From a virus: a stretch of DNA of 63,164 nucleotides. The translations under genes were made by a program, and so were the position numbers. Below are positions 4,710 to 51,370 of this stretch, piece after piece (position 1 is the first letter of the stretch; every line of letters begins with the position of its first letter). Below the pieces are notes generated by a model. It searched no databases and was not told where the DNA came from. It saw nothing but the letters and a program-made list of their open reading frames with translations. The DNA is taken from the IMG/VR virus record IMGVR_UViG_3300022166_000001, one strand, 5' to 3'.

Positions 4710-4726
4710 TCGGTACCTAATAGGAA
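4707..4726 (+). promoter_or_regulatory. Phage promoter-like motif P1 (TAATCGGTACCTAATAGGAA)
   Basis: 19/20 match to the 9-copy consensus. TAA is the spanin stop codon. GGAA lies 6 nt before the phoH TTG start. Confidence 0.6.
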
Positions 4727-11377: not shown

Positions 11378-14300
11378 ATGATTGCACCTTTGTCTGCAAA
11401 ACAAGAACGTGAGTGGGCTAAACACCACGCTAAAGAAGCTCGTGAAACCAAGAAAATGGAGAACGAGGAAAGTCGTAAACAAGAATTACACGAGATTAAA
11501 ATGCAAGAAGCAGCTGTTAAAGCTGGTCAAGGTGTTGCTCACAAAGAAGAGCTACATAATCTCAAAGTAAAAGAATTAGGCGGTCCGCTTTCTGGTAAGC
11601 GTATGAACCGAGAAAAGATGGGGTTACCAAGTAACAACCCTTTAGCCGGAGCTGAGGTATTCCACAGAGGTCAGCACATGTTACCTAAAGGTACTGATAC
11701 CGTACCTGCAATGCTCACTCCAGGTGAAGCTGTTATTCCTAAAGCTGCTGCTCAAGACCCAAAGAATAAGCCTTTAATTAAACAAATGGTTCAACAAGGT
11801 CGTCAAGCACAGTATCATGCTCAAGGGACTACTGGTATTGTTCAACAACAAAACTTAATCCCTATTCTACCTAAGGTAGCGCCTAAGCGTAATCCAAAAG
11901 GATATGCCGAAGGTACTGAATCAGTCCCTAATTTAAATAACTATTATCACACAGACAGTGCTGCTTCTATGGAAGATGGTACTACCCAAGTTGAGCCTCA
12001 TTACTACACAGTTGGTACTACTGATGTTGGTCAACCGCCTCCTGTACCTTTAAATGAGTTATCTGCTCAACCGTCTTTTACTGGTGAGTTGCCTGATAAC
12101 TATACAAGTTTTGTTATGCCTACTGTATCAGATGGCGTTAATGTAGCTGGCCCTATTGGTGGTGACGATTTCCAACGACAATTAGTTGAAAAACGTTTGC
12201 AACGTGAAGCTGAATTAAAGCAAAATGCAATTAATGAGCAAGATGCTCGTTCTGCCGAATACCAAGAGCAGCTAAAGAATAAGCCTGTTGCAGCACCTGT
12301 ACCCGGTTACAACCGTATGGGTAACGTTGCCTCTGTAGTTCCAACAGATAAATATGCTCCACCAGCAACACCTGTTGTTCCTGTTAAGGTTGAAGAACCT
12401 GTTAAAGTAGAAATGCCTGTAGCTAAAACAAGCACTTATAAAGTTATGGATGCCAATGGTAAGATTGTTGATATGGGAGATCCTGTCAAAAATATTATCA
12501 ATAAGTCTTTCCAAACAGAAGGTGGCTTTGTTGCAGATGATGCAGGACGCGGTCCAACTAATCATGGTATTAACTGGGAAGCTAACCAAAAAGAATTAGC
12601 TCAAATGGGTTATTCTCGTGATACAATGGATAAGCTTACTCGTGAAGATGCCGCTAAACTTTACGAGACTAAATACATTCGTGGTCCTGGGTTTGATAAG
12701 TTATACGCTACTAACCCTGCATTAGCTAACGCTGTTATTGATGCAAGTATTAATATGGGTCAAGATACTGCTAAGAAACTCTTAGAAGCTTCTGGTGGTG
12801 ATGTAATTAAGTTTAATGAGTTACGTAAGGCTCAATATGATAAGATCATTGCTAATGATCCATCTAAAGCTAAATACAAGAAAGCTTGGTACGAGCGTAC
12901 AGACAAAGCTGCAAGTATGAATCCTGCCGCTACAGTGGGTGAACAACGTTTAACTCCTTTAACTTATCGTGAACAGATTACTAAAGGTAATTATGTACCT
13001 GAGTTTGCTGATGATCAGTACAACCCAGACGTTAAGCAAGTTGGTGAAGTAGTTCCTCGTTTAGATGACTCTGGTAATGTTGTAACTAACAAACCAACAG
13101 TTCAACCAACTCCACAAGTAGTAGCAGAAACCTTAAAGACTACTAATCCACAAGTAGATGCTGCATACAATGCTGCTAAAGGTGATGACCGTACATTCTT
13201 AGAAACATTTAAAGACATTTTCTCTTACAAAGGTTTGAAAGATGCTTTAGGTTTGAATAACCAAGATGTTGCTCGTATGGGTGCAATGTACTTAGGTTCT
13301 CGTGCTCGTGGTTATGATGGTGCCCGTTCATTATCATTTGCTGGTCGTACTACTTTTGAAAATTCTCTACACAGACAAGATCGTGAAGAGCAGTTTAAGA
13401 ACAGTATGGCACTACAAGATCGTGCAGATGCTCGTCAAGCTAACATGCTTAACGAACAGCACCGTAGAACTATTGAAGCTAAACTCATTGAAGCAGGTTA
13501 CCCACAAGAAGCTATTGATAAATACTTCAAGACAAACGATGCTCGTCAATTAGGTGAGCCTACAAGAACTACTGTTCGTGTTGGTGAGTCTCGTACTATG
13601 ATGTCTACTGATCCTGCATTGTATAACAAGCCTATTGTTGTACATACAGTTGAAGAAAAGACAGGTAAACGTAAAGGCGATCGTTATGAAGTTGCAACTA
13701 TTGATGGTCGAGAAGTACCTCTAGACGCATTACAAAAGCAGGGATTATCATTAACACCTTGGAGCGAATCTACTCATGGTGTAACAGGTAAGACTGAACG
13801 TCAGATTAAGAATACTAAGTTTGCTTCGGAAGTAGCAGATGAAATTCTTACTGCTGAATTAGGTGCTGATAACGTCAAAGGTAAAGCCAACCCTAACCGT
13901 CAAGGTATTCCTGGACCTAAACAAATTGCTGATCAAGCTGGTAGTTATTTCTCTAATATTGGTTTCAATTTAGAAGATGGTCGTCAGATGCAAGAAGCAA
14001 GATTGTTAATGGGTAATGCTACTAAAGATATGCTTGCAGCTAAAAATGCTGGTACTAAAATAAACAGCATTGAGCCGTACTTAGCTCGTAACGTAATTAC
14101 TCAACGCATGGGTATTGATCCTAACGCTTTGATGTTAGAAAAAGATAAACCAATGCCAGCTGAAAAGATTGTTGACTTGAATAACCTTGCTCGTAGATTC
14201 TCTGCAGTAAGTAATGACGGTAAACCTAATGAAGCTCAGGCAACAAGTGAAATTCAAAGACTACATCAAGTGTGGGCTAACCCTAAGAGTGCTAAGTTAA

Positions 14301-14383
14301 GAGAGCAATTCAAAGGTACAAGCAACGAAACTGCTTTCTATCAGTTCGCTACAGAAGCTCTGAGAAAGAGCCTTGAGAAATAA
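11378..14383 (+). CDS. Giant internal virion protein with a GH108-type muramidase plus PG-binding-like region
   Basis: AAGGAG RBS. FQTEGGFVADDAGRGPTNHGINW resembles the GH108 EGGY...D.GG.T.yGI signature and is followed by a YIRGPGFDKL...ANAVIDASINMG region. Confidence 0.65.
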   Translation: MIAPLSAKQEREWAKHHAKEARETKKMENEESRKQELHEIKMQEAAVKAGQGVAHKEELHNLKVKELGGPLSGKRMNREKMGLPSNNPLAGAEVFHRGQHMLPKGTDTVPAMLTPGEAVIPKAAAQDPKNKPLIKQMVQQGRQAQYHAQGTTGIVQQQNLIPILPKVAPKRNPKGYAEGTESVPNLNNYYHTDSAASMEDGTTQVEPHYYTVGTTDVGQPPPVPLNELSAQPSFTGELPDNYTSFVMPTVSDGVNVAGPIGGDDFQRQLVEKRLQREAELKQNAINEQDARSAEYQEQLKNKPVAAPVPGYNRMGNVASVVPTDKYAPPATPVVPVKVEEPVKVEMPVAKTSTYKVMDANGKIVDMGDPVKNIINKSFQTEGGFVADDAGRGPTNHGINWEANQKELAQMGYSRDTMDKLTREDAAKLYETKYIRGPGFDKLYATNPALANAVIDASINMGQDTAKKLLEASGGDVIKFNELRKAQYDKIIANDPSKAKYKKAWYERTDKAASMNPAATVGEQRLTPLTYREQITKGNYVPEFADDQYNPDVKQVGEVVPRLDDSGNVVTNKPTVQPTPQVVAETLKTTNPQVDAAYNAAKGDDRTFLETFKDIFSYKGLKDALGLNNQDVARMGAMYLGSRARGYDGARSLSFAGRTTFENSLHRQDREEQFKNSMALQDRADARQANMLNEQHRRTIEAKLIEAGYPQEAIDKYFKTNDARQLGEPTRTTVRVGESRTMMSTDPALYNKPIVVHTVEEKTGKRKGDRYEVATIDGREVPLDALQKQGLSLTPWSESTHGVTGKTERQIKNTKFASEVADEILTAELGADNVKGKANPNRQGIPGPKQIADQAGSYFSNIGFNLEDGRQMQEARLLMGNATKDMLAAKNAGTKINSIEPYLARNVITQRMGIDPNALMLEKDKPMPAEKIVDLNNLARRFSAVSNDGKPNEAQATSEIQRLHQVWANPKSAKLREQFKGTSNETAFYQFATEALRKSLEK

Positions 14384-14398: not shown

Positions 14399-17300
14399 AT
14401 GGATAAATTAGAACAAACGCTAATGGAGTTAGGAGTCAATTCAAAAGATATCCCTAAAGCCTCTAACTTTAAAATTGAAGGTGGTAGCTTGAAGGATGCT
14501 GATACAATCCTTCTTGATAACGGGACTACACTGAGAGTTCCCGGTATCAACGCTCGTGAATCGGGCAAGCTTAAAGAGGAGGGCTTTATCGCCCCTCAGT
14601 TGGGAGCCGACACACAGACAGGCTTAGTTAGAGATGTTATCAATCAGGAAGGTTATGCCACCCCTTCTCTTGGTACATCCAAAGATATTTACAAACGTAA
14701 CTTAGGTGAGTTAACAGATGCTAATGGTAAGCCATTGTCAAACCGTTTACTTGAGCTAGGTTACGTTGATCCATCTATTTCTGTTACACAACAGCAAATG
14801 GATTCAGCTTATTTGGGTCGTCTAGATAGAGCTAAACGTCAAGCAGAAGGTACTCAGACAGTAGCGGATAAGCTATTAACTGACCTTAATATTGAGCGTA
14901 ATCAAGGTGGTGTACAAGCAAAACGATACACTAACACTGCTAAAGAATTCGGTCAAGCTGTTGGTGAAGGTACGTCAAGTGACTACTTTGCTGGTCCTGC
15001 AGTTATTAGACCTGAAGAAGATCGCTATGGAAGAGCCAAGAGTAACTGGTCTACAGGTTTAGACATTGGTACTGCTCAAATGAAACAAGGTTGGTTTGGT
15101 GCTTTAGACTTAGTCGGCACTAAAACAGGTATTGATTTCTTAGCTGACATGGGTAAGGCAAACGTAAAACAACAAGAGTCTATCTTAAGAGACCTCCCTT
15201 TCCTAAAGAACGCTGAAGCCTTTGATGATAAAGGTCATTGGAAGCTAGATTCATTTGGTAAAGTAGTTGACTATTCAGTTGGTATGGCTGCATCATCAGC
15301 CCCTCAAATGGTAGCGTCTGTTATTGCAACTATGGCTTCACCATTAACCTATGGTGCTTCAATGTCAGTTCCTGCAGCTATCTATACAGGTAATGTATGG
15401 AATGCCCAAAAAGAAAAGAACGCTACTGCAGCTATTTTGTCAGGTGTAACACAAGCTGTTCTTGATAAAGTAGGTTTAGAAGGTATTAGCGCTGGTGCTG
15501 CCCTAAAAATTACTGACAAAGCTACACAGTCAATGGTTGTTAAAGAGCTTATGGGTAGAGGTATTACTCAAGAAGCTGCTGAGAAAATGGTTCTTAAATC
15601 TACCCAAGAAGCGGTTAAAGACGTATCAGATGCTATGAGAGCTGTTGCTATCAAACAGAACTTAGGTGCTGGTGCGGTTATGGGTGCTATTGGAAAAGGC
15701 GCTGTATCCGAAGGTGGTACAGAAGCATTACAAGAGATTGCTTCTTATTTAGGTGAAGAAGTTACACTAGCACCAAAGACACCTGAGGAATGGGCTAAGC
15801 TACAAAGCCGTACAGCTAATGCTGCGGTTGGTGGTGCTATCCTTGGTGGTGGTCTTTCAGGTGCTGGTAAAGGTTTAGCTACACTAACTAACTCAGCAGC
15901 TTCTACTAAAGAAGGTTCTGACTTACAATACAGAGAACGATACAAGGCAAATAACAATACAACTACTGTTCCTACTGCTTCTGAACTTTTAGTTAAAGCT
16001 CAAAAGAATGTTAGTCAATCAAATGAAATCCCTGACTTAGATAAGTTAGCTGAGATGGAAACTACTAAACGAAACATTGAAGGTGTAGCCGCTAAGACTG
16101 GTTCATTCTTCAAGGATAAAGGTTTAACATCTTTGTTTGGTAAGTGGTCTAATGTGATTATGAAGGGTAAAGATTATGCTGATGAGTCTCTTGCTGCATT
16201 AAGCACCTTACTTGGTTCTACTCGTGCTGTTAATGGTTTATCTATTGATGAAACTCAACACTTACTAGAATCAAACATCTTTAAGAACTTTGGTAATAAA
16301 GAAGAACTACAGTCAGCTTTTAATGGCATGTCCACTAAAGAAGCATCTGCTCTGTTATCTAAACAGAATGTAGTTGATGTAGTTAGTCGATTGATTCGTA
16401 ACAAACGTTTAACTGGTTCTATTGATGGTCTTGATATTGATGCTGACCTTGGTGCTGATGTACTACATAAAGAAGGTATTTTAAAATACGCTAATAAGAT
16501 TGATAACCTAGTTAACGATTATAATAGAGCAACAGGTAGTGATATCTCCGTAGAAAGATTCTTAGAGAACCATCCATTAGATAAAACACTAGTCTCTAAA
16601 AACTTCAATCAATTTATTTCTGATATTCAAAGTTCATTTGGTGTTGACCAAGCTGAAGCCACTCAAATGGCTCAAGCGGTATTAAACAATAATGATGTAA
16701 ACAGTATTGAAGACACAATTGATGATTGGCTAAACCCTGATGCTAATAAAATTAAAAGCAAAGCAGAAATTGAAAAGAAACTTAATGGTCCAGAGTTAAA
16801 AGCTAAATTTGCACCTTATATGTCTACTGATTTGCTAGACAATGCTTATTCATTAGCTGCTCGTGGCGCTGCTATTGCAGTTAACAAAGAATTAATTGGT
16901 AAAGATGGTATTAAGCTAGCCACATTACTTCAAGATGCAGTTAATAAAGGTGCAATTACTCAAGCAGAAGCTTCATTCATGGCTAAGGAAATTAAAGATT
17001 TCCTAGATATGAGAGCAGGTAAGTTCCACCCTATTACTAATGAGTACGCTCGTGGTGCATTGAATTTGGTTAATTTCTTATCTACTATTACTTCGCTACC
17101 ACTAGCTGCTATTAGCTCTACTGTAGAGTTTGCTCAGGTATACCGTAACTTAAATGCACCTCAGTCCGTTAAAGCTACTCGAATTCTTCTCAATACTTTT
17201 GGTAAAGAGTTTGGCGCTTTATTCAAAGAGCTAGGTGAATCATTTGGAATTAAAAACCCTACGGCATCTAAGCATCGTAGGGAATTATCTGAAGCTGGCT

Positions 17301-18193
17301 TCCTAAGAGAAGGTGGTATTGGAAATCGTAATGACATTTTAACAGGTTATTTCCAGAAGTGGAATGAAGGTTTCTTCAAGCTTACTGGTTTGACTTCTAT
17401 CACCGCTGTTACTCGTCACGCTAAGCTAGCTATTGCTGCTGATGCCATTAATCATTGGGTTAATGTTGCTCAGGGTAATGGTACATTCACACCTCAACAA
17501 GTTCAAGATGCCAAAGAGCATTTGATTCGTATTGGTGTTGACTTAGACTTTATGACTAGCATTGAGAAGGATACTCCACAGAATCAACAGAGAGTGTTAG
17601 CCAACTTACAAGCTGGTGCATACAACTTTGTTAACGAAGCTGTTGTTGTTCCTTCACAACTTAACAGACCTAAGTTTTATAGTGACCCGTACTTGAAGTT
17701 GTTTACTCAATTTCAAGGTTACACCTCAACATTCACAGCAACTACTCTTCCAAGATTACTAGGTGATCTAGGTAAGAAAGGTTCTGATGACCAGCGTAAT
17801 GCTGCCGCAACAATTGCCATGATGTTTGCTTTATCTATGCTTGCTCTGTATGTAAAAGACATGATCAAGTACAATGAGCATCCACCTAAATGGCTAAAAG
17901 AAGATAAAGAATTTCAACGTTTGATTAACCAAGTAGGCTTACTAGGTACTGGTCAACGTATTTGGGATACTATATCTCCTACCGTTGGTAATGATAAAAA
18001 GGCTAACAGTATTCTTGGTCAGGTATATGACCAGATCTCTGATCAATCACCCCAATTATCATTCATCAACAAAATCAATTCTGCTTTATCAGCACCTGAG
18101 GGTAAGCGAATTGAAAAGGGTGCCAGGTTGCTTCCTATTGTTGGAACAAGTCCCGCCTTGGCTAAATATTTACAAAAAGAATTAGGAGAATAA
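14399..18193 (+). CDS. Giant internal virion protein with an N-terminal staphylococcal-nuclease-like domain
   Basis: DADTILLDNGTTLRVPGINARES...DIYKRNLGEL...NRLLELGYVD parallels the SNase pattern DGDT...RL.GiDtPE...DkYGR.La...LvrqGlA. Confidence 0.6.
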   Translation: MDKLEQTLMELGVNSKDIPKASNFKIEGGSLKDADTILLDNGTTLRVPGINARESGKLKEEGFIAPQLGADTQTGLVRDVINQEGYATPSLGTSKDIYKRNLGELTDANGKPLSNRLLELGYVDPSISVTQQQMDSAYLGRLDRAKRQAEGTQTVADKLLTDLNIERNQGGVQAKRYTNTAKEFGQAVGEGTSSDYFAGPAVIRPEEDRYGRAKSNWSTGLDIGTAQMKQGWFGALDLVGTKTGIDFLADMGKANVKQQESILRDLPFLKNAEAFDDKGHWKLDSFGKVVDYSVGMAASSAPQMVASVIATMASPLTYGASMSVPAAIYTGNVWNAQKEKNATAAILSGVTQAVLDKVGLEGISAGAALKITDKATQSMVVKELMGRGITQEAAEKMVLKSTQEAVKDVSDAMRAVAIKQNLGAGAVMGAIGKGAVSEGGTEALQEIASYLGEEVTLAPKTPEEWAKLQSRTANAAVGGAILGGGLSGAGKGLATLTNSAASTKEGSDLQYRERYKANNNTTTVPTASELLVKAQKNVSQSNEIPDLDKLAEMETTKRNIEGVAAKTGSFFKDKGLTSLFGKWSNVIMKGKDYADESLAALSTLLGSTRAVNGLSIDETQHLLESNIFKNFGNKEELQSAFNGMSTKEASALLSKQNVVDVVSRLIRNKRLTGSIDGLDIDADLGADVLHKEGILKYANKIDNLVNDYNRATGSDISVERFLENHPLDKTLVSKNFNQFISDIQSSFGVDQAEATQMAQAVLNNNDVNSIEDTIDDWLNPDANKIKSKAEIEKKLNGPELKAKFAPYMSTDLLDNAYSLAARGAAIAVNKELIGKDGIKLATLLQDAVNKGAITQAEASFMAKEIKDFLDMRAGKFHPITNEYARGALNLVNFLSTITSLPLAAISSTVEFAQVYRNLNAPQSVKATRILLNTFGKEFGALFKELGESFGIKNPTASKHRRELSEAGFLREGGIGNRNDILTGYFQKWNEGFFKLTGLTSITAVTRHAKLAIAADAINHWVNVAQGNGTFTPQQVQDAKEHLIRIGVDLDFMTSIEKDTPQNQQRVLANLQAGAYNFVNEAVVVPSQLNRPKFYSDPYLKLFTQFQGYTSTFTATTLPRLLGDLGKKGSDDQRNAAATIAMMFALSMLALYVKDMIKYNEHPPKWLKEDKEFQRLINQVGLLGTGQRIWDTISPTVGNDKKANSILGQVYDQISDQSPQLSFINKINSALSAPEGKRIEKGARLLPIVGTSPALAKYLQKELGE

Positions 18194-18197
18194 TTCT

Positions 18198-21100
18198 ATG
18201 GCTATTAACATTCCATCCGGAGCTAATGTACCTTCACTAGGTCAGAGCAACCGATTCCTTGAAGATCAACTTAAACAGCAAGTACCTGTTGTACCATCGC
18301 TAGATGTAACAGACGAGTCTATTGCAGCTCGACAAGCAAATGCTATGGGAGAAATCCCTCAGAATATGCAATCAACAGGCAGTGTACCTGCTGTAGGTTA
18401 CCAAGGAGAAGAGGAAGATTATCCTTCTTTTGCTGCTTCGGGTGTTAAGGCACCTACCTATGAACCTTCACCTTTCAGTGATGTCATGGAAGGTATGCCT
18501 TCTCGTTTGATGGATATCCGTGGTAATGAGATTACGGATCCAGAAGCAATCCAACAAATGTATGAAGAAGAACGTAGCCGACAAGCTAACTTAATGAAGC
18601 CACTTAACAAGGACTGGACTTCAATTAAAGAACTTCGTGATGCGTTCCCTGATTCTGCTAAACCTACTCAAGCTGGTATTATCCAGCGAGCTTCTAAAGC
18701 TATTGGTGAAACATTAGCGGATACTACTGTTACTCTTCGTGACAGTAATTCACCTACTGCTGTTCAGCTTTCAGCAATGACTCGATTGAAGTCAGGGCTA
18801 AACACATCAACTGCATCTACTGCTAACGTAGTTAACATGGCAGGTATCCTGATGAGTCCTATGATTTCAGGTGCAGCTAGTCAAGGTAATGGTTCTGTAG
18901 CTGCTAGCGAAGAAGCGTCTGATGTAGACTTTGGATACGACTCTATCAATGATCTTCTCCGTGATGACGGCGAAGGCCCAGTTGAAATGACTGCTGTTGA
19001 TGGTGCTATGCCTCGTGCTTCAGTAGCTAAGACATATGGTCGTTTGATGAAGAAGTTAGCTCAAGGTTCTGCTCTTGATGCTAACAATCAACCGCTTGAC
19101 CCTTCTACGATGCCTCGCCAAGATATTAGTACTGAAGAAGCAGGTGAGATTGGCTTGCAAGCTGAGATTGATGCTGGTCATTTAGTTGAGGATGTATCAC
19201 CTGAAGGTATTGAGTTAGTCCGTATGGCACCTGGCTTTGGTCATGAGCGTTACGTTACTTCTCGTGCTATGGGTAAAGAAATGAACGCAGCTATGGCTGG
19301 CCAAAAGCAGCGTGTGCCTGTATCATCTAAGGGTAATTTAGTAGGTGCATCAAGGAACATTCGTACTGGTGATAAGAAGAAACATAAGTTCAAAAACACA
19401 CCAGAAATGGATGAGACTAAACGCATTGTTGGTTCTATTGCTAAACACGTAGGTGCTGGTAAAGCTGTTATTGGTTCCTTATATGTTAATCAGTTACTAA
19501 ATCAGTTATCAGACCCTAATCGAAGCACACCTTTGAATGTATTGCATCTATTTAAGATTAGTCAAAAAGATGCTAATGATGCTTACAATATGTTTGGTGA
19601 TGACTACTTTATGCCAAACTCTAAGGTGCCTGTTAAAGAGTTGACACCTGAAGCTAAGTCTATTAAAGATAAAGTTGCTGATTTACTTAAAGAAAGAACT
19701 GATCACCTAAATGAGGTTGCTTTAGGGCAAGCTTACTTTACACCTGCATGGGAAGACTATAGTACACACCGTGTGTATTTAGACCCTCGATTTAATGCTC
19801 AACGTAATAAGTACACTCGTGCTGTTGAATCTTTTGTTTCACCATCATTCCAGTTAGACCCTACTACTGAGTATCATACTAAGGGTGTTAATCGTGAAAC
19901 CGCTAATAAGTTCTGGGAACGTATTGGTGAGTTATCAAAGAACAAGAATGCTAACTTATCTGCTAAAGAAAAGGAATTAAGCTTCTTAGCTACATTAGGT
20001 CGTGTCTTAGATGTTGGTTCTAAAGTAGGTATGAAGACTGAACAGATGGTATTCCCTGAGATGCTATCTTTAGTAACACCTGACTTTATCCACGAAGCAG
20101 CATTCATTGGTGATGCCCTAAAGAGTATTGTACCTACAAACAAAGGTGATTTGCTTAAAGGATTTGACAAAATTGAGTTTGGTTTATTAGAACCTGTACA
20201 GCAAAAAGCATTAGCAAAAGTAGCTGACTTGGCTACAGGCATTGGTGACCGTGAAACATGGGGCTATGTATTACAAGCTTATGTAGATGCTGCTGATTAT
20301 GTCAACGCTAAGCGTAATGGTACTGGATTTAACCCTAAGGTAACAATTGCGATTGATGCTAACTCAGCTGGCTTAATGTTCCTTGCTTCTGACATTGGTA
20401 ACTTTGACATTCTAAGCCGTGTTGGTTTGATCTGGGAATACTTATCTGACGCAGAGTTCCAAGATACTATGCCTGAAGGTGATCCACGTCGCTACTTTAC
20501 GGATGTGGCTAAAGAACAGAGTATCAGTACTACATTTGGACCTGATAAGGTCGATACATCGGCGCTCTGGAAAGAAAAGCTAGATCAATTTGGTGGTATT
20601 GGTGTCAAAGGTGCAGGTCAGTTTAACAAAGAGTTCGCTAAGAAAACTCTACTTACAACTGGCTATGGTAAATCTTCAGCGTTCCACGTAGACGAAGCAA
20701 GAGCTTTCTTAAAAGAATACCCTGAGTTTGCAACTGAAATGTTGGAGTCAGCTGAGTACAATGGCGATAGTACTAAATTAGTGCATGACCTAAACGACAT
20801 CTTGAAGAACACTGTGAGAACAGCTCTACAAGAATGGCAGTTTACTACGCCTAAAAAGACAGTAGCTACTTTACAAATGTTCAATAGAGTACCACACCCT
20901 ATTGGTAAGTTTGGTGAAGAGCTAAGCTTTGGTAGATTCGGGTCTATTGAATCAGGTAAATCTGTTGAGATCAAGAATAAGAACAAGAGCAAGGCTCGTA
21001 AGATCAACACTAGTATTACAGTGTTTGACCCTATGGCACCTGCCAAACGTAAAGGCACAACAGATGAGTTTGGTAATGAGGTAATTCCAGGTCCAGGTAC

Positions 21101-21740
21101 TGCAGCGATCAATCAAGTTGGTCCAGCCTTTGGTCAGTATCGTGAATCTGTAATGTTGTCTATTGCTGCACGACACTTCAACGAAGGTAAGCAGCCAGCA
21201 GACATGGTACCGTTTACTCCTGTATTCGATAACTTGATTTTGAATTCACAATCATACCCATTAATGCTTCATGCTATTAACAACATCGCATTACCTCAAG
21301 TCTTAGACTGGGATATGGTAGATGCTTTTGTTAAAGACTTTGAGAAACAGTTCGGAGAAGCTGTAAATGAAGTAAGAGCGTTAGGTGGTGAAGTTTCTAT
21401 TGGTGATAAAGGTACCTACAAAGGTTTCTTACAAACATTAGATAGAGAGTATGAATACTTTGGTACTGAATTAACCCCTCGTGAGAAAGCATTTAAAGAA
21501 TTCTTAGAATCAGACAAGTCTGGTTGGAAGCCTAAAGCCGATCGCCCAGATCAATACTATATTAGTGATGCACAATTCATTAACACTGTTAAACAGTTTA
21601 TGAATTACAAACACTTAATCTTTGATTTGAAACGTTGGAACGGAGTAACCGACAAGACTGACTATAAGAGTGCTCGTAAGCGAGCTAACAGTGAGATGCA
21701 CAGACTAGCTAAAGCTGGTCGTATCTACAACGTTACTTAA
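18198..21740 (+). CDS. Diverged single-subunit RNA polymerase (virion RNAP candidate), 1180 aa
   Basis: Motifs in T7 order and spacing: ATLGRV (R602), IAIDANSAGLMF (D720), KEFAKKTLLTTGYG (K811, K815, Y823) and PVFDNLI (D1011). It is the last gene of the late operon, where N4 places its vRNAP gene. Confidence 0.6.
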   Translation: MAINIPSGANVPSLGQSNRFLEDQLKQQVPVVPSLDVTDESIAARQANAMGEIPQNMQSTGSVPAVGYQGEEEDYPSFAASGVKAPTYEPSPFSDVMEGMPSRLMDIRGNEITDPEAIQQMYEEERSRQANLMKPLNKDWTSIKELRDAFPDSAKPTQAGIIQRASKAIGETLADTTVTLRDSNSPTAVQLSAMTRLKSGLNTSTASTANVVNMAGILMSPMISGAASQGNGSVAASEEASDVDFGYDSINDLLRDDGEGPVEMTAVDGAMPRASVAKTYGRLMKKLAQGSALDANNQPLDPSTMPRQDISTEEAGEIGLQAEIDAGHLVEDVSPEGIELVRMAPGFGHERYVTSRAMGKEMNAAMAGQKQRVPVSSKGNLVGASRNIRTGDKKKHKFKNTPEMDETKRIVGSIAKHVGAGKAVIGSLYVNQLLNQLSDPNRSTPLNVLHLFKISQKDANDAYNMFGDDYFMPNSKVPVKELTPEAKSIKDKVADLLKERTDHLNEVALGQAYFTPAWEDYSTHRVYLDPRFNAQRNKYTRAVESFVSPSFQLDPTTEYHTKGVNRETANKFWERIGELSKNKNANLSAKEKELSFLATLGRVLDVGSKVGMKTEQMVFPEMLSLVTPDFIHEAAFIGDALKSIVPTNKGDLLKGFDKIEFGLLEPVQQKALAKVADLATGIGDRETWGYVLQAYVDAADYVNAKRNGTGFNPKVTIAIDANSAGLMFLASDIGNFDILSRVGLIWEYLSDAEFQDTMPEGDPRRYFTDVAKEQSISTTFGPDKVDTSALWKEKLDQFGGIGVKGAGQFNKEFAKKTLLTTGYGKSSAFHVDEARAFLKEYPEFATEMLESAEYNGDSTKLVHDLNDILKNTVRTALQEWQFTTPKKTVATLQMFNRVPHPIGKFGEELSFGRFGSIESGKSVEIKNKNKSKARKINTSITVFDPMAPAKRKGTTDEFGNEVIPGPGTAAINQVGPAFGQYRESVMLSIAARHFNEGKQPADMVPFTPVFDNLILNSQSYPLMLHAINNIALPQVLDWDMVDAFVKDFEKQFGEAVNEVRALGGEVSIGDKGTYKGFLQTLDREYEYFGTELTPREKAFKEFLESDKSGWKPKADRPDQYYISDAQFINTVKQFMNYKHLIFDLKRWNGVTDKTDYKSARKRANSEMHRLAKAGRIYNVT

Positions 21741-21746
21741 TCAAAT

Positions 21747-21794
21747 AAAAACCCCTATTAGGAATTATCCTAGTAGGGGTTATTTTTTTTTTTT
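21747..21794. terminator. Bidirectional intrinsic terminator at the convergence of the two arms
   Basis: ACCCCTATTAGGA-atta-TCCTAGTAGGGGT stem of about 13 bp (21751-21780), flanked by an A-run on the left and a long T-run on the right. Confidence 0.85.
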
Positions 21795-22074
21795 AAGCTG
21801 TCAAAGCTTTGTGTGCCTGTAAAGCGGCGCTACGCAACATATCAGCTTCTTCTTTAGCTTCTTCTGGTGTGTAGTTCTTATTTGTTTTATCGTTGATTAC
21901 TGTAGGTAGACCTGCAATATTCTGTTTGTAGATTTCATTAATAACAAACGGATTCATCTCAGGAGTATACAATAGATTGTCAGGGATATGTACACCTGAC
22001 TTAGCCATGTCTTGTTGGAATTCATGGTCATCGTAGTTGTGACCACGTAGAGCTTCCATGTTGTATGATTTCAT
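21793..22074 (-). CDS. Hypothetical protein, 93 aa (last gene of the minus arm)
   Basis: ORF ends at the terminator; 1-nt overlap with the upstream gene. Confidence 0.55.
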   Translation of the reverse strand: MKSYNMEALRGHNYDDHEFQQDMAKSGVHIPDNLLYTPEMNPFVINEIYKQNIAGLPTVINDKTNKNYTPEEAKEEADMLRSAALQAHKALTA

Positions 22075-22538
22075 TATAGACTCCGTTTCAATGTTGCTTT
22101 AACTTTCCAGTTAAGCTTAGATAGACCTGCAAGATAGTCACCTAGATAAGTCTCTAAGCCACCAACACCTTGACGACCTGCTTCTTCATACACCCATTGA
22201 CCATTACGTAATAGTGTTTCAAAGTCAGCAGTTAAAGCTTCAAGTTGTTTAGCTGGATTATCGATTACATTAGTCTCTTCATCAATTTCACTAACACTTA
22301 AGATACTCTTTAAAGTAGTAGGTGCTGGCTTGTCTAGTTGACGGATTTGTTCACCCAACGTATCGTGATTTTCATAGAGATAATCATAGATATCGTTTAA
22401 CAATGAATGGTCTTGAGAGAATGTCTGCCCTTGAACGTTGAAGTGAAAGCCGTGAGACTTATAGTACACCACAAAGTTATCAGCAAACAAACAGCGTAAT
22501 GCGGATACTAAGGTATCCTTATTTTTTGTCGTCATCAT
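22074..22538 (-). CDS. Dps-like ferritin-fold protein
   Basis: LFADNFVVYYKSHGFHFNVQGQTFSQDHSLLNDIY...LGEQIRQL matches the Dps pattern (fHWnV.G..F...H..f.e.Y...D.iAEri..LG). Confidence 0.7.
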   Translation of the reverse strand: MMTTKNKDTLVSALRCLFADNFVVYYKSHGFHFNVQGQTFSQDHSLLNDIYDYLYENHDTLGEQIRQLDKPAPTTLKSILSVSEIDEETNVIDNPAKQLEALTADFETLLRNGQWVYEEAGRQGVGGLETYLGDYLAGLSKLNWKVKATLKRSL

Positions 22539-22707
22539 TGTTTCCTTTTATTAATGCAGTGTCAACCGCATATGCGTATTCTTTAACCTTGTCATTGAAT
22601 ACATGTTCAGCTAACGTTTCTGCAGGTTTCTTTGGACTCCAAATGGCATCCCAATTACTGCGTACTTTTTCAGCATCTTCATTACGGCGTCCTGAACCTT
22701 TACCCAT
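22519..22707 (-). CDS. Hypothetical protein, 62 aa (the longest ORF extends to 22758)
   Basis: ATG 22707 is preceded by AGGAG. The longer start has no RBS. Confidence 0.45.
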   Translation of the reverse strand: MGKGSGRRNEDAEKVRSNWDAIWSPKKPAETLAEHVFNDKVKEYAYAVDTALIKGNNDDDKK

Positions 22708-22797
22708 ATTAATTCTCCTGATTGAATGTATCCCATGATGACTCATATAAGGGGTCATAGGGTAAATTTAATTCGTAGTCTTCAATAGCGTCTTCCA

Positions 22798-23154
22798 TTA
22801 TACCCCTTGTGCTTTCATTGTCTTAACAATAGCAGAGAAAATATAATCTTTAGCTTGTTGTTCAACAGGTAAGTCTTCATACTCAACCATACAAGGATGT
22901 GTCTTTTCTTCTACATTCTTTTCTTCACCGTATACCCAACCATCAGCATCTTTAACTGCATACCATTCATTATGGCTGTCTGCAGGTGTAGAGTCTGGGT
23001 TGTTAAAGTGATATACAACTCCTTTGTATGCTGACTCTTTTTGCCATTCAGGAGCATCAGCCCATGATACTTGAGAGTCATCACCTAAAGCTAGGCAATA
23101 AGCACGATTAGCTTCGTGACATACTTGTGCGATTTTTTCTAATTGGGGTTTCAT
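22798..23154 (-). CDS. RyR-domain-like protein
   Basis: HEANRAYC...W.DAPEWQKES...HNEW...DGWVYGEEKN...KTHPCMVEYEDLP resembles bacterial/phage RyR-domain proteins. Confidence 0.5.
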   Translation of the reverse strand: MKPQLEKIAQVCHEANRAYCLALGDDSQVSWADAPEWQKESAYKGVVYHFNNPDSTPADSHNEWYAVKDADGWVYGEEKNVEEKTHPCMVEYEDLPVEQQAKDYIFSAIVKTMKAQGV

Positions 23155-23174
23155 TTAATGTGTCCTATTGTTAA

Positions 23175-23250
23175 TGGTGAGTCATGACGGATTCAAACCG
23201 CCGACCAACGGTGTAGAAGACCGATGCTCTATTCACTGAGCTAATGACTC
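23175..23250 (-). tRNA. tRNA-Arg (anticodon TCT)
   Basis: Manual cloverleaf: acceptor GAGTCAT/ATGACTC, D arm GCTC/GAGC, anticodon loop CTTCTAC, T arm GGCGG-TTTGAAT-CCGTC, encoded CCA. Confidence 0.85.
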
Positions 23251-23257
23251 AGGTTAG

Positions 23258-23347
23258 TGGAGGAGACGGTGAGATTCGAACTCACGGTCGGGTTGCCCCA
23301 ACATCTGGGTTCAAGCCAGATACATTAAACCACTCTGACACGTCTCC
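23258..23347 (-). tRNA. tRNA-Ser (anticodon TGA), long variable arm
   Basis: Acceptor GGAGACG/CGTCTCC, anticodon stem TCTGG/CCAGA with loop CTTGAAC, 6-bp variable-arm stem, T arm GTGAG-TTCGAAT-CTCAC, CCA. Confidence 0.85.
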
Positions 23348-23352
23348 GTTAT

Positions 23353-23427
23353 TGGGCAGAACGATGGGTTACGCTCCCTATCTACCTGTTTCACAGACAG
23401 GTGTGCTACTATTACACTATCGACTGC
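23353..23427 (-). tRNA. Degenerate tRNA-like element with a His-type (GTG) anticodon arm; possible pseudo-tRNA
   Basis: Perfect anticodon arm CCTGT-CTGTGAA-ACAGG and D arm GTGT/GCAC. The acceptor pairs only 4 bp (GCAG/CTGC), and the T arm is aberrant (GAT-A-GGG / CCCATC with loop AGCGTAA). Confidence 0.3.
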
Positions 23428-23435
23428 ATTATTTT

Positions 23436-23514
23436 TGGCTCCGGATGTCGGAATCGAACCGACCTAACCATTGATTAACAGTCAAGCCCATGCACCTTGC
23501 TCGGGTTTTCCGGA
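23436..23514 (-). tRNA. tRNA-Asn (anticodon GTT)
   Basis: Acceptor TCCGGA/TCCGGA, T arm GTCGG-TTCGATT-CCGAC, anticodon loop CTGTTAA, long D loop, CCA. Confidence 0.6.
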
Positions 23515-23647
23515 ATAGTTGATGGCTTATCACCATCGAGAACTCAGTTACTATATACGTCTATATAGCTCACACGTAAATTCGTGATTAGGTCTTCACC
23601 AGCTTAGGTACCCGTTAAGGTGTGGGAGCGGAGTTTCTACTGATATA

Positions 23648-23723
23648 TGGAAGCGAGTGGTTGGAATCGAACCAACTATCTGCAGCTTATGAGGCTGCTG
23701 AGATACCATTTCTCCACACCGCT
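23648..23723 (-). tRNA. tRNA-Met/Ile2-type (anticodon CAT)
   Basis: D arm GAGA/TCTC, anticodon arm GCAGC-CTCATAA-GCTGC, T arm GTTGG-TTCGATT-CCAAC, CCA. The acceptor stem needs one bulged T. Confidence 0.6.
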
Positions 23724-23732
23724 ATAAATTGT

Positions 23733-23752
23733 TTCCTATTAGGCTCCAGCTA
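23733..23752 (-). promoter_or_regulatory. Phage promoter-like motif P2 (TAGCTGGAGCCTAATAGGAA on the minus strand)
   Basis: 16/20 match to the consensus. Overlaps the thioredoxin stop codon and lies 9 nt upstream of the first tRNA. Confidence 0.45.
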
Positions 23753-24002
23753 AAAACTTCCTTGTTTCTTCTAGAGTCATAGTACCGCTTTGTTTACGTA
23801 GTACATTACCTTCAGAATCTTCTAAGATAAAGTAAGGTACACCTCGGATTTGGTGTTTGATTAAAATCTCTTTATCTTGAGCGGCATCAATCTCTTCTAG
23901 CGTAGTATTAAACTCACCTACAAGATCAATGTCGTTAAGAATACCTGTCATTACTTTACAGGGACCACACCATTCAGTGTATACTTTAATTAGTTTGTTC
24001 AT
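23739..24002 (-). CDS. Thioredoxin
   Basis: WCGPCK active site; 87 aa. Confidence 0.85.
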   Translation of the reverse strand: MNKLIKVYTEWCGPCKVMTGILNDIDLVGEFNTTLEEIDAAQDKEILIKHQIRGVPYFILEDSEGNVLRKQSGTMTLEETRKFLAGA

Positions 24003-24379
24003 TGGTTTCTTTCTAAATAGTTAAGGGCTTTCTTTAGGGATTCAATAGAATCACCTAGTTTACCTATACCTGTATTACATTCACCACAAAGAATACCACG
24101 TACTTTCCCTGTGGTATGGTCATGATCAATTACTGCATTGCTTTTACCTGCACCTAATCGTATTGCACTTGTAAAGGAAATAGGGAATCCACAACACCCA
24201 CACTGATTATTTTGTGATAACAAAAGTGCGTCTCTTTGTGGAGTTGTTATTCCATATTTGCTTAATTTATTTTTACAAGACAGACATTCAGTATCAACAC
24301 AATGATACGTCTTGCCAGTCTTGTAAGTACGGGTGTATGTACGAGCTAAGTTAGTACAACCTTCGTGTTTGCAAATCAT
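23999..24379 (-). CDS. Endonuclease VII-type (HNH-like) nuclease
   Basis: VIDHDHTTGKVRGILCGECNTGIGKL matches the T4 endonuclease VII signature. ATG 24379 forms an ATGA overlap with the RNR stop (the longest ORF extends to 24403). Confidence 0.75.
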   Translation of the reverse strand: MICKHEGCTNLARTYTRTYKTGKTYHCVDTECLSCKNKLSKYGITTPQRDALLLSQNNQCGCCGFPISFTSAIRLGAGKSNAVIDHDHTTGKVRGILCGECNTGIGKLGDSIESLKKALNYLERNQ

Positions 24380-26247: not shown

Positions 26248-26717
26248 TGTTTAATTGTCCTTTGTAAAATTTGTTTTCCAGCAGTAACCATGCGTTTTCC
26301 GGTTACGCTTTTGTTTGATGAATTAATATTGAGTATGTCAGGTATTTCATAATACCTTTTACCACCTTCAAACAATTCGTTTGCAAGTATTGCTTGATCA
26401 GGTGTAAAGGATTTACAATAAAATTTATCTGGGTTACCTAATCTATTATAAATAGGTTTAACTTCTTTAATTAAATTTAACTCTAAATCAAGTGCATGAT
26501 CTTTAGTGAGTAAAGTATGAGTTACTTTTGCAATATCACCCATAGTGAATCCTTGCTCATAAAGATTACTAATCCACATTGAATGAGCAGGACTACGGTG
26601 ACTCCCTGAAGAAGTGCCTGTGGCCCATGCTCGACTTCCGGTACCCATACCAATGTAAACAATTTCACCTGAATCAGGATCAACATGTTGGTACAGGTAG
26701 TATAATTCTTTTATCAT
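26244..26717 (-). CDS. GIY-YIG homing-endonuclease-like protein (the longest ORF extends to 26732)
   Basis: LYYLYQHVDPDSGEIVYIGMGTGSRAW. ATG 26717 has an AGGAAAA RBS. Free-standing between the RNAP and RNR genes. Confidence 0.55.
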   Translation of the reverse strand: MIKELYYLYQHVDPDSGEIVYIGMGTGSRAWATGTSSGSHRSPAHSMWISNLYEQGFTMGDIAKVTHTLLTKDHALDLELNLIKEVKPIYNRLGNPDKFYCKSFTPDQAILANELFEGGKRYYEIPDILNINSSNKSVTGKRMVTAGKQILQRTIKQ

Positions 26718-26735
26718 TTTTATTTTCCTCATTAT

Positions 26736-26755
26736 ACGGTATTAGGTACCGACTA
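26736..26755 (-). promoter_or_regulatory. Phage promoter-like motif P3 (TAGTCGGTACCTAATACCGT on the minus strand)
   Basis: The first 16 nt are identical to the consensus; the 3' GGAA is replaced. Intergenic, between the RNAP gene and the GIY-YIG gene. Confidence 0.5.
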
Positions 26756-26799
26756 GTTGTGAATCCACAACCAAAGAATGAGAAGGGTTAAGATTGGTA

Positions 26800-29001
26800 T
26801 TAGCAAAAGAAATACTTTGAGTTATAAACGTCTTGGAGGTCTAAACTTCCTGTTTCAGGTTGAGCAAAAGTGAATGATTCTTTATTCTCCATGAGGGTAT
26901 CTTGGAGGGTGTTAAAGAAGTTCTCTGTGTCATACTGAGCAATGAAGTTCATCTTAGTTACTTCTTGTAGAAAATCCACTTCATCAGCGTGGGTACTAAA
27001 AGAATCGTGAACTGCACCAAAACTACCATTGAAGCCAACAATAGTGTTAGCCATATGAGCAGCATCATAGGAATGTACCACATTAGGGCTAATACCCGAA
27101 GCAAAACTCCTACGGCATGGTACTTTTTCCCCAGTTTCTTTATTGAGGACATCCACTTTAATAACGTGCATGATACGACCGTCTTTATTTCCCGTAATAC
27201 CTCGTATCGTACCTCGCTGTTTGCGTTCGTGCTGAAGATAAGCTTTGTAAACCACAGGGAAGCCACTAGGAGTGTGCCAAGTAAGGTTATTTCTACCGGA
27301 GTTAAGTTCATGTTCTGCAATCTTCTGTAAGTATTTAGTTGTTTTAAGTGGACCAGCACATACAGTGTTGATTGCTTTGATTAGGTTACCTGCAAGAGTA
27401 TCACACTGATCCTGATCAATGTTATACTTGACAGTGAAACCTTCTACGTGACAATCATCATACATGTTCTTGGCGATACGTTGTTTACCTGCTGAGTAAG
27501 CACGAGTCATAGAGCCTCGTTTAGCAATACCTTTACGGATATGCTTCATAGGCATCTGCTTTTCTTCAAACCATTCAGGCATAATTGTGATGAGTTCTTT
27601 AGCAACAGCTACATAGAAGTCTTTTTGGATAGGAGTAGGTACTAAGGACACTAATGTACCTGCTTGCTTATCTTTGGACATAGCTGCAAGATGCTGCCAG
27701 CCGTTATTAGAACCATCAATAGGGATAGGGAACCCTGACATATACTCTTGACGTAACATCTTAGCTACTTTGTACCCTTGAATCTCTAAACAACAAGCTA
27801 GTAAGCTATATGGCTTTTCAGCTGACATGTCAATACGTTTCTGCTTGGCAATCTCCATTAAGAAGGTCATGTTGTTATCAACCCAAGCAGCACGATCATC
27901 TAAGGTCATCTTGTCTAAAGAGATAGTATCAAGACCTTCTTCTTGTAGATAAGCTTTGTAGTCAGTCTTAAAGTAGCTTGGGATTTCATCAATGTTGAAT
28001 GATGTATTGTAGCAAGCTGCTGTATGTACCTTTAACCAGAAGAAACCTTTTTCACTGACATGCTTTTTGTTAGCGAATAAAAAGAGACTACGGGCTAAGT
28101 CACTACCTTGGAACTCAAGGAATGATTCAGCATAGTAGACTCGTCCACGATAGTCACAAGATACTTCTTGGTAGAAGGTCTGATCATTAACTAATCGTGC
28201 TTTCTTTAGTACCTGATTGTATTCGAAGTACTTACTAAGCATACGTTGTAGCTTAGGGTCTTTCTTACCCATGAACTTAGTACCGTCTAAGTGGTTAAGT
28301 TTCTTAGGTAAGTTAAGGTTCTCATGGTGAATGTTGTATACAAAGATTTCACCATTCTCATCAACCAAGTCAAGAGTTTCTGAAGGGTATGTATGCTCCA
28401 TAGCCTCTAGCACTGGTAGATTAAGCTTCCAAGGCTGTTGGCGTAATGTCTCTAGACTCTTGATGAATGGTTTGTCTAGGTACTCATGGAACAAACGACT
28501 GTTAGACCAGCCCTTAATGAACGGTTCTTTAGTAAGGTGACTATACAAACCAGTGATAGGTAATAACGGTTCAAATGATGTGCCGATTAACGTGGGCTTA
28601 AGATCGTCTGTCTGGTTAACGATACGTACCATGTATGGAGCCTTACGACCATCATACTCACGGAAGATATCGATTAGACCGTCTTGGAGGAATGTTTCAA
28701 GCAGAAGGTCTCCAAGAGATAAAGTTGATTTGATATTATGCTCGTCCGTGCCAATAGCTCTTGCAATTCGCTTCCCGATAAGGTCAGAGGCGAAAGTAAG
28801 CTTAACTGACGCAGAGTGTGTTGCATTTTTGTTACGGATACAGTAACGCAGCAAGGTGTCCCACGATTCATTGATAAACCTTTCTAAGTCGTATTCCCAT
28901 GTAGGGTGATGTGCAAGGAGTCTAGCACCCTCATTATAGATCTTATCTGAGTTTAATACTACCTTGGATACACGTTCAGTAAGATATTGTGTTGGATTCA
29001 T
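26800..29001 (-). CDS. T7-like single-subunit DNA-dependent RNA polymerase, 733 aa
   Basis: DYRGRVY (T/DxxGR), PIDGSNNGWQHLAAM (motif A), RKGIAKRGSMTRAYSAG (motif B) and GAVHDSFSTH (motif C). Confidence 0.9.
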   Translation of the reverse strand: MNPTQYLTERVSKVVLNSDKIYNEGARLLAHHPTWEYDLERFINESWDTLLRYCIRNKNATHSASVKLTFASDLIGKRIARAIGTDEHNIKSTLSLGDLLLETFLQDGLIDIFREYDGRKAPYMVRIVNQTDDLKPTLIGTSFEPLLPITGLYSHLTKEPFIKGWSNSRLFHEYLDKPFIKSLETLRQQPWKLNLPVLEAMEHTYPSETLDLVDENGEIFVYNIHHENLNLPKKLNHLDGTKFMGKKDPKLQRMLSKYFEYNQVLKKARLVNDQTFYQEVSCDYRGRVYYAESFLEFQGSDLARSLFLFANKKHVSEKGFFWLKVHTAACYNTSFNIDEIPSYFKTDYKAYLQEEGLDTISLDKMTLDDRAAWVDNNMTFLMEIAKQKRIDMSAEKPYSLLACCLEIQGYKVAKMLRQEYMSGFPIPIDGSNNGWQHLAAMSKDKQAGTLVSLVPTPIQKDFYVAVAKELITIMPEWFEEKQMPMKHIRKGIAKRGSMTRAYSAGKQRIAKNMYDDCHVEGFTVKYNIDQDQCDTLAGNLIKAINTVCAGPLKTTKYLQKIAEHELNSGRNNLTWHTPSGFPVVYKAYLQHERKQRGTIRGITGNKDGRIMHVIKVDVLNKETGEKVPCRRSFASGISPNVVHSYDAAHMANTIVGFNGSFGAVHDSFSTHADEVDFLQEVTKMNFIAQYDTENFFNTLQDTLMENKESFTFAQPETGSLDLQDVYNSKYFFC

Positions 29002-29005
29002 TTTG

Positions 29006-30612: not shown

Positions 30613-30780
30613 TTAGTTCCAGTCTCGTTCTTCACGAAGCTCACGTAGGAAATTTCTGCGGTCACTTGCTTGACGTTGGGTTTGTTTCTTTTCTTTGAAT
30701 TTGTTTTTGAATTCATCCTTTAATGAGACCTCATCCTCATACTGGACATTCTTGATTGGTGGTTTAAATTTCTTACTCAT
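30613..30780 (-). CDS. Small basic hypothetical protein (the longest ORF extends to 30822)
   Basis: ATG 30780 overlaps the upstream stop by 8 nt. Lys/Arg-rich. Confidence 0.4.
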   Translation of the reverse strand: MSKKFKPPIKNVQYEDEVSLKDEFKNKFKEKKQTQRQASDRRNFLRELREERDWN

Positions 30781-44377: not shown

Positions 44378-44435
44378 ATGGTGTTGTTTTGGTTTGTGCC
44401 GAAGGCTCCTTACAAAGTTTTAAAGAAAGAATTTT

Positions 44436-51350: not shown

Positions 51351-51370
51351 TAGTCGGTTCCTATTAGGAA
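51351..51370 (+). promoter_or_regulatory. Phage promoter-like motif P9 (TAGTCGGTTCCTATTAGGAA)
   Basis: 18/20 match, 24 nt upstream of the terminase ATG. It heads the whole late arm. Confidence 0.6.

Follow-up and report, generated by a model that had tools for sequence, protein, structure and literature searches.

A highly diverged single-subunit RNA polymerase at the end of the virion operon of a marine podovirus: a candidate stand-alone virion RNA polymerase

The virus record IMGVR_UViG_3300022166_000001 from IMG/VR, a stretch of 63,164 nucleotides (nt) that we refer to as the window, contains a large open reading frame (ORF; 18198..21740, +) encoding a protein of 1180 amino acids (aa). The locus raises two questions: whether this product is a second RNA polymerase (RNAP) of the phage, and, if so, whether it travels in the virion like gp50, the virion RNA polymerase (vRNAP) of phage N4. 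A first-pass annotation made from the sequence alone had proposed both. The ORF begins with ATG, its end coordinate includes the stop codon, and an AGGAG ribosome-binding site lies 9 nt upstream, overlapping the preceding gene's stop codon. ORF calling and translation bear out its extent. The surroundings are also as the annotation described them: the RNAP gene is preceded by two genes with products of 1001 aa and 1264 aa, closes the plus-strand virion block and adjoins a terminator at the point of convergence, and a canonical T7-like RNAP of 733 aa (26800..29001, -; phrog_414, E-value 4e-99; 10 cysteines) coexists in the genome. By its fold, motifs and profile statistics the 1180-aa product is almost certainly an RNA polymerase of the T7/mitochondrial/N4 single-subunit superfamily. 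The 733-aa T7-like RNAP is the second, non-virion RNAP of the phage.

Routine searches miss the 1180-aa RNAP. No match was found in Pfam or PHROGs, PDB sequence searches were empty with both the single sequence and a seven-sequence profile, and tblastn against 50,697 phage records returned nothing, also when two distant family members served as queries. At E-values up to 1 the protein has no match to PF00940, the family of T7-like RNAPs; in that scan the 733-aa RNAP reaches 3e-56. An index of 5.8 billion proteins yielded only eight relatives, all unnamed or 'hypothetical'. A profile search of 1.84 billion cluster representatives identified 124 clusters with E-values below 1e-3 (106 below 1e-10). 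Nearly all are 1100–1440 aa long, none matches N4 vRNAP or T7 RNAP in size, and the conserved core corresponds to residues 660–1150 of the query. The 1180-aa RNAP belongs to this previously unannotated family of 1100–1440 aa proteins, which is specific to a clade of marine podoviruses of ~58–63 kb, the 'CRP-7 type'. A profile of the close clade alone reaches E-values of 0.001 against N4-like vRNAPs and 0.39 against T7-like RNAPs; it is too narrow, and routine annotation therefore overlooks the enzyme.

A member of the family occurs in the cultured Roseobacter phage CRP-7 (MK613349), where gp33, linked via P0113 (BLASTP 2e-45), carries the motifs EADARQSNAG, KDYARGLVVAGLYGK and AIHDALI. The CRP-7 genes gp33, gp34 and gp35 (17859–29367, -), annotated as 'hypothetical protein', are the counterparts of the 1180-aa RNAP and the two giants that precede it. 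The CRP-7 paper (2019) reports ORF30 (gp30) as the only RNAP, and GenBank does likewise. In the literature we found no account of the family, nor of CRP-7 gp33 as a polymerase, with subscription journals incompletely covered and a prior description possible. A large survey of N4-type enzymes kept no proteins below 2500 aa (PMC10654107). In DSS3_PM1 (Naomviridae), which has a tail tape-measure gene and a similar RNAP, no such giant gene was found in the 24 kb around the RNAP gene.

An AlphaFold (AF2) model of the 1180-aa RNAP built on 58 family sequences has a predicted local distance difference test score (pLDDT) of 85.4 and a predicted template modelling score (pTM) of 0.85. It replaced an earlier model built on seven sequences that was unusable (pLDDT 51). 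Only residues 1–86 and 236–248 are disordered in the model, and the predicted disordered N-terminal segment (residues 1–86; 18198..18455, +) shows pLDDT below 50 and is poorly conserved beyond the close clade. The fold search that the first-pass annotation had suggested was carried out with Foldseek against PDB and gave the right-hand RNAP fold, with both N4 mini-vRNAP and T7 RNAP as matches. The best 50 matches listed are all single-subunit RNAPs (T7, mitochondrial and N4), with E-values of 1e-13 to 2e-11, a probability of 1.00 and alignments of 970–1360 columns; they include yeast mitochondrial RNAP (8atv, 1.1e-13), N4 mini-vRNAP (3c3l, 7e-13), T7 RNAP and human POLRMT. In the viral library BFVD the model matches T7-like RNAPs and fragments of N4-like vRNAPs.

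Profiles of the family (99 sequences), of the polymerase domain of N4-like vRNAPs (14 sequences) and of T7-like RNAPs (10 sequences) were compared using hhalign. The N4-like profile was assembled from an IMG/VR scan and GenBank loci; a homologue search with N4 mini-vRNAP gave only two proteins. The family aligns with the N4-like polymerase domain at a probability of 97.8% and an E-value of 1.1e-12 over 868 columns, spanning family positions 110–1140 and mini-vRNAP positions 53–1096. Against T7-like RNAPs the probability is 95.9% (E-value 5.8e-9), and the N4-like and T7-like profiles match each other at 92.4% (5.1e-7). The controls remained at background: family A DNA polymerases gave 0.1% (E-value 0.49), the reversed N4-like alignment 0.1% (0.79) and the reversed T7-like alignment 0.0% (0.83). 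Identity as a family A DNA polymerase was accordingly rejected on the comparison with PolA, and the phage encodes a PF00476 polymerase of its own. The core claim of the first-pass annotation, a second and highly diverged single-subunit RNAP of the T7/N4 type, is strongly supported by the fold search, by the profile comparison with its controls and by the invariant residues.

Conservation of these residues was counted over 99 family members, which are often only 15–30% identical to the 1180-aa RNAP. Four catalytic motifs had been quoted, and three of them stand by profile-profile alignment. Motif A (residues 716–734, TIAI-D720-ANSAG; 20343..20399, +) contains the catalytic aspartate D720, equivalent to T7 D537 and N4 D559. 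It is invariant (99/99), and G725 is found in 97 members. In motif B (residues 811–825, KEFA-K815-KTLLTTG-Y823-G824-K; 20628..20672, +), K815, Y823 and G824 align with T7 K631, Y639 and G640 and with N4 K670, Y678 and G679. Position 815 is lysine in 94 members and arginine in 5, Y823 is present in all 99 and G824 in 94. Motif C (residues 1006–1016, FTPVF-D1011-NLILN; 21213..21245, +) carries the second catalytic aspartate, D1011 (T7 D812, N4 D951), which is again invariant (99/99), and strands 1006–1009 and 1012–1016 flank it as a hairpin in the AF2 model. Conservation among homologues, by which the annotation had proposed to judge its motifs, thus favours D720, K815, Y823 and D1011. It does not favour K811, which had been included as the equivalent of T7 R627; this position is lysine in only 58 of the 99 and aspartate in 27.

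The fourth motif had been misplaced. The quoted 'ATLGRV' with R602 aligns to T7 A465, and only 33 of the 99 members have arginine there. The true T/DxxGR-type region is found at residues 519–541 (EDYSTH-R525-VYLDPRFNAQRNKYT-R541; 19752..19820, +), where R525 is equivalent to T7 R425 and N4 R424. Within it, STH-R525-VYLDPRF-N533-A-Q535-RNKYT-R541 matches T7 423–441 (WRG-R425-VYAVSMF-N433-P-Q435-GNDMT-K441) without gaps, giving the shared pattern R-V-Y-x4-F-N-x-Q-x-N-x2-T-K/R. R525 is invariant (99/99), and position 541 is arginine in 98 members and lysine in one. Because the true motif lies here, the first interval, from this region to motif A, is 195 aa and not the 118 aa given before, compared with 112 aa in T7. 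The invariance of the catalytic residues in 99 otherwise diverged members argues for selection for catalysis and not for a relic fold. Judged from its sequence, the 1180-aa RNAP is very likely catalytically active.

Distant members of the family resemble N4 in their motifs. Their motif A reads AEADGINNG, compared with VEADGVTNG in N4, and KDFIKIPLMTTIYG corresponds to N4 RGIAKNPLTITIYG; motif C has FD instead of HD. The pattern ExDGxxxG is a hallmark of the N4 motif (PMC10654107). Between motifs B and C the AF2 model contains a long beta-hairpin (residues 913–944; 20934..21029, +), formed by strands 913–926 and 933–944 and aligned to about T7 720–745. This is just before and into the specificity-loop region of T7 RNAP. 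A beta-hairpin at this position in the model suggests that the enzyme is probably promoter-specific.

The position of the gene bears on the second question. Window bases 1–123 are exactly the same as bases 63042–63164, and this 123-bp overlap of the ends indicates a circular assembly with an arbitrary window start and a genome of 63,041 bp, which is apparently complete. On the circle the virion operon therefore begins with the terminase gene at 51395, crosses the junction of the window ends and reaches 21740. Its products include the terminase, portal, scaffold, major capsid and tail-fibre-like proteins. The 1180-aa RNAP gene ends a block of giant genes following the tail genes. The first giant (1001 aa; 11378..14383, +) has an internal GH108 lysozyme domain (PF05838, E-value 8e-12; phrog_315; PDB 6v3z), a parallel with podovirus ejection proteins in that one giant of the block bears a cell-wall hydrolase domain. 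The second (1264 aa; 14399..18193, +) matches phrog_6958, 'virion structural protein', with an E-value of 1.5e-23. Both are presumed to be ejection or internal virion proteins. A bidirectional intrinsic terminator, read directly from the sequence, lies at the convergence point (about 21744..21794). It consists of a 12-bp stem, CCCCTATTAGGA/TCCTAGTAGGGG, with one mismatch and a 4-nt loop, an A-run on its 5' side and a T-run on its 3' side, and the genes 3' of it switch to the minus strand. The gene of N4 gp50 holds the equivalent place, after gp52 and gp51 (PMC13434306), so that the likeness in position seen by the first-pass annotation, the end of the late operon by the convergence terminator, is confirmed.

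This arrangement is conserved. The order giant, giant, family gene and convergent ~700-aa PF00940 RNAP is found in the window, in CRP-7 and in three metagenomic loci (L004, L005 and L006) whose family proteins share only 15–19% identity with the 1180-aa RNAP. In CRP-7 it appears as gp35, gp34 and gp33 facing gp30, the RNAP. Homologues of the 1264-aa protein occupy the same position in CRP-7 (gp34) and the three loci, and the first giant of L004 also carries a lysozyme domain. The family gene is always the last in a block of cysteine-free giants, converging on a replication module that ends in the ~700-aa T7-like RNAP.

The composition of these proteins is equally consistent. The three giants of the window (1001, 1264 and 1180 aa) are devoid of cysteine over their combined 3445 residues, compared with 1.2% cysteine in the rest of the proteome, and their homologues in CRP-7, L004, L005 and L006 also have none. 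Cysteine is absent from 87 of the 99 family members and never exceeds two residues. The N4 vRNAP has no cysteine in 3500 residues, whereas ten non-virion T7-like RNAPs have 7–16 each. Of the earlier designation 'free-standing virion RNAP', the stand-alone RNAP is upheld; the evidence for packaging is circumstantial and consists of gene position, synteny in five diverged genomes and the lack of cysteine. Taken with the promoter layout, these features make it reasonably likely that the enzyme is packaged and ejected and initiates transcription.

We identified a conserved 18-mer, TAGTCGGTACCTAATAGG, in nine copies in the genome. It ends in the T7-promoter-like TAATAGGAAA. Eight matches occur at up to three mismatches compared with 0.01 expected, plus one further copy. 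Plus-strand copies are located at 4707–4724, 44358–44375 and 51351..51368, the last 27 nt 5' of the terminase gene, and minus-strand copies at 23735–23752, 26738–26755, 35834–35851, 38923–38940, 44920–44937 and 48330–48347. All are co-oriented with the local genes, several lie 6–27 nt from a start codon, and 18 of 22 related contigs retain the copy 5' of TerL. The palindromic core CCTAWTAGG recurs in the stem of the convergent terminator (21752–21779). The 18-mers are probably promoters of the 733-aa T7-like RNAP. They span middle and late genes, and none is found in the first ~2 kb of the leftward operon, the early region at 48.4–50.5 kb. The gene of the 733-aa RNAP lies ~19 kb downstream of the first leftward 18-mer. 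If the 18-mers are this enzyme's own promoters, another polymerase must transcribe its gene first. Sigma-70-like sites in the 48.4–50.5 kb region are fewer than in shuffled sequences (2 compared with 5.0).

Several further features were observed alongside the 18-mers. A rightward island (44358–45275, +) with ORFs at 44436–44861 and 44970–45275 interrupts the minus-strand block and has its own 18-mer at 44358, back-to-back with the leftward 18-mer at 44937; an equivalent divergent pair occurs in most related contigs. Between the divergent early (-) and late (+) operons lies a 681-nt segment depleted in T (50490–51170, +; A 268, C 200, G 168, T 45), including stretches of 107 and 81 nt without any T. 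Its sequence is unalignable among 22 related IMG/VR contigs, and T depletion recurs 350–850 nt 5' of the terminase genes of relatives, with a minimum T fraction of 0.003–0.18 per 400 nt. ORFs called in it (e.g. 50494–51168, -) are artefacts, because the composition is stop-free. The segment may mark a genome end, serve as an origin or form the leader of the first transcript.

The explanation that we favour, with a probability of roughly 60%, is that the 1180-aa protein is a right-hand-fold RNAP of a new family that is probably packaged in the virion and starts the transcription cascade. The capsid would contain the enzyme along with the two upstream giants, and at infection the enzyme would be ejected through the tail, as is N4 gp50. 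In the cytoplasm it would begin phage transcription without host RNAP, and it may also help to pull the DNA in. By transcribing the early genes first, it would in time bring about expression of the 733-aa RNAP, which would take over from the nine 18-mer promoters and transcribe middle and late genes.

A number of observations weigh against this explanation. Host RNAP could transcribe the early genes, and one weak sigma-70-like site points into them. Early promoters in N4 are small DNA hairpins with a stem of 5–7 bp and a 3-nt loop (PMC4496689), and an N4-type set of hairpin promoters was not found in the genome. Two tandem 49-nt repeats in the early region (48754–48851; ATGGTCTGAT…AGTTAG-N6-CTAACT) each contain a hairpin of 6–7 bp. 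However, they are absent elsewhere in the genome and conserved only in the closest relatives, and a vRNAP promoter is therefore not definable from them; possible roles for them are as a promoter of the vRNAP, in RNA processing or in regulation. The 1180-aa RNAP has no N4-like membrane-anchoring N-terminal domain (NTD), no autoinhibitory C-terminal domain (CTD) and no transmembrane-like segment. PF00940 and four N4 vRNAP Pfam models miss both this protein and eight distant relatives. The CRP-7 paper includes neither virion proteomics nor a discussion of gp33–35. Finally, ejected proteins tend to avoid cysteine and to be encoded at such positions, but these correlations do not prove ejection.

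With the identity of the RNAP solid and its packaging deduced indirectly, an active enzyme that stays out of the virion has to be considered. It would be produced late as a second intracellular RNAP, serving for example a class of late genes, replication priming or transcription-coupled packaging, and would merely share the operon with virion genes; the lack of an N4-like NTD, CTD or membrane segment is in keeping with it. However, if the late operon is its sole source, the RNAP cannot initiate the programme, and a T7-like RNAP and a primase-helicase are already available to the phage. A cytoplasmic role also leaves unexplained why the cysteine-free composition is common to N4 vRNAP and the co-operonic giants but not to ten cytoplasmic T7-like RNAPs, and the last place in the ejection-protein block has been kept across very deep divergence. 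We regard an unpackaged enzyme as unlikely. Much less probable still is that the protein descends from an RNAP but no longer polymerizes, having been exapted as a structural component of an ejection or inner-membrane complex. Its operon position equals that of T7 gp16 and N4 gp50 and it has diverged beyond recognition by Pfam, as such a history might produce, but the metal-binding aspartate pair, the lysine and tyrosine of motif B and the arginine of T/DxxGR are invariant or nearly so across the family, as would be anticipated only if catalysis is under selection.

The first-pass annotation had gone further and proposed that the functions of the N4 polyprotein are split among the three giants, which would correspond to the N-terminal, polymerase and C-terminal parts of a gp50-like protein now encoded by separate genes. 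The three lengths total 3445 aa compared with 3500 aa, all three proteins are free of cysteine like gp50, and the polymerase part is nearest to N4 vRNAP. The agreement in length, which had been offered as evidence, is a coincidence. Comparison of the 1001-aa and 1264-aa proteins with the gp50 NTD and CTD, gp51 and gp52 gave hhalign E-values of 0.04–0.5 and probabilities below 2%, with limited sensitivity given small profiles and a single N4 sequence. Neither protein matched a PDB chain of N4 gp50 or contained an N4 Pfam domain. On these null hhalign and PDB searches, the upstream giants were rejected as equivalents of the N4 NTD and CTD or of gp51 and gp52. In addition, the RNAP gene is last here, whereas the polymerase of gp50 sits between the NTD and the CTD. 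The 1001-aa protein bears a lysozyme domain, as do T7 gp16-type internal proteins. The portal protein likewise groups with podoviruses of the Bjorn/tf type and not with Schitoviridae: its best match is that of CRP-7 (52%), followed by Bjorn/tf/HTVC106P-type podoviruses (26–29%), with no schitovirus among the 20 records listed. A split of the N4 polyprotein is thus not supported and we consider it very doubtful.

If a virion-packaged polymerase is the correct explanation for this locus, virion-delivered single-subunit RNAPs extend beyond Schitoviridae. We lean, if only slightly, towards the view that the abundant and widespread marine podoviruses of the CRP-7 type package a free-standing enzyme of ~1200 aa and run a two-polymerase cascade independent of host RNAP. 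Injecting one's own T7-type polymerase would then be a broader and older strategy than has been thought. To study the threading of polymerases through a phage tail, a protein of ~130 kDa would also be far easier to work with than the N4 enzyme of 383 kDa. An annotation gap would be explained as well, as the largest genes of CRP-7-type phages have been left 'hypothetical'. Since CRP-7 is a cultured isolate, these predictions are testable.

Other genes in the window were recorded in passing. The minus-strand replication block includes auxiliary genes for a ferritin-like protein, a B12-dependent ribonucleotide reductase, an ATP-dependent DNA ligase and an RNA ligase (22074–22538, 24376–26247, 36218–37099 and 40191–41084). 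A SegE-type GIY-YIG homing endonuclease is encoded at 30773–31423. Four tRNA genes (Arg-TCT, Ser-TGA, Asn-GTT and Met-CAT) are clustered at 23175–23724 (-), just 3' of one 18-mer site; CRP-7 has one tRNA only, tRNA-Arg(TCT). A tail-fibre-like gene for a 505-aa protein (60111–61628, +) contains long arrays of degenerate 21/42-nt repeats, which code for sequence rich in Ala, Ser and Thr.

Among known systems the best profile match of the family is the mini-vRNAP of N4 gp50 (residues 998–2103; PDB 2PO4, 3C3L, 9PNQ), which the AF2 model resembles with template modelling (TM) scores of 0.44–0.47 and with the catalytic residues in register. Distant members share the N4-specific motif variants EADGxxNG and K-x-P-L-x-T-T-I-Y-G, and their motif C has FD in place of HD. 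The complete absence of cysteine and the last place in an ejection-protein operon beside a convergence point are further likenesses. However, gp50 is a protein of 3500 aa with a membrane-anchoring NTD and an autoinhibitory CTD (PMC13434306), and the protein described here has 1180 aa and neither domain. The gp50-type vRNAPs of Schitoviridae are ~2800–3800 aa long (PMC10654107), which places the 1100–1440 aa family outside their range. The Pfam models vRNAP_dom, N4_RNAP_helical and vRNAP_plug find no match in the 1180-aa RNAP. By its portal the phage is not a schitovirus, and the hallmark virion genes of Schitoviridae were not found. N4 also uses a two-subunit RNAPII, whereas a fused T7-like RNAP coexists here, and no set of hairpin promoters was found. 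The 1180-aa RNAP is outside the gp50 family: it is no giant multidomain chain, has none of the gp50 Pfam domains and is encoded alongside no schitovirus virion genes.

With T7-like (PF00940) and mitochondrial RNAPs the enzyme shares its fold over ~800–1000 residues, with TM scores of up to 0.58 (normalised to target length). The spacings between the later motifs are 95 and 196 aa compared with 94 and 181 aa in T7 RNAP, the T/DxxGR region aligns without gaps, and a beta-hairpin occupies the position of the specificity loop. It differs from the T7-like RNAPs in being ~300–450 aa longer, with ~80 extra residues between T/DxxGR and motif A, in containing no cysteine where those enzymes have 7–16, and in being encoded in the virion module and not in an early or replication module. 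Without a match to the PF00940 hidden Markov model, it is outside that family proper. As the third and last large internal or ejection protein after the tail genes it is a positional analogue of the T7 gp16-type ejection protein, and the three ejection proteins of N4 are analogous to T7 gp14, gp15 and gp16 (PMC13434306). However, gp16 is not a polymerase, and T7 uses host RNAP recruited at entry (PMC13434306).

The concept of an RNAP delivered with the DNA for host-independent early transcription is shared with the crAss-like vRNAP, the multisubunit vRNAPs of phiKZ and AR9 and the RNAP fused to the tape measure in P23-45. These enzymes are of the two-barrel (multisubunit) type, a fold unrelated to the right-hand T7/N4 type found here. 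Within the right-hand type the family is closer to N4 vRNAP and to T7 RNAP than those two are to each other. By sequence it appears to lie between them, as an intermediate relevant to how the N4 enzyme arose. It could represent the ancestral stand-alone state before the fusion that gave the 3500-aa N4 enzyme, or a reduced derivative of that enzyme.

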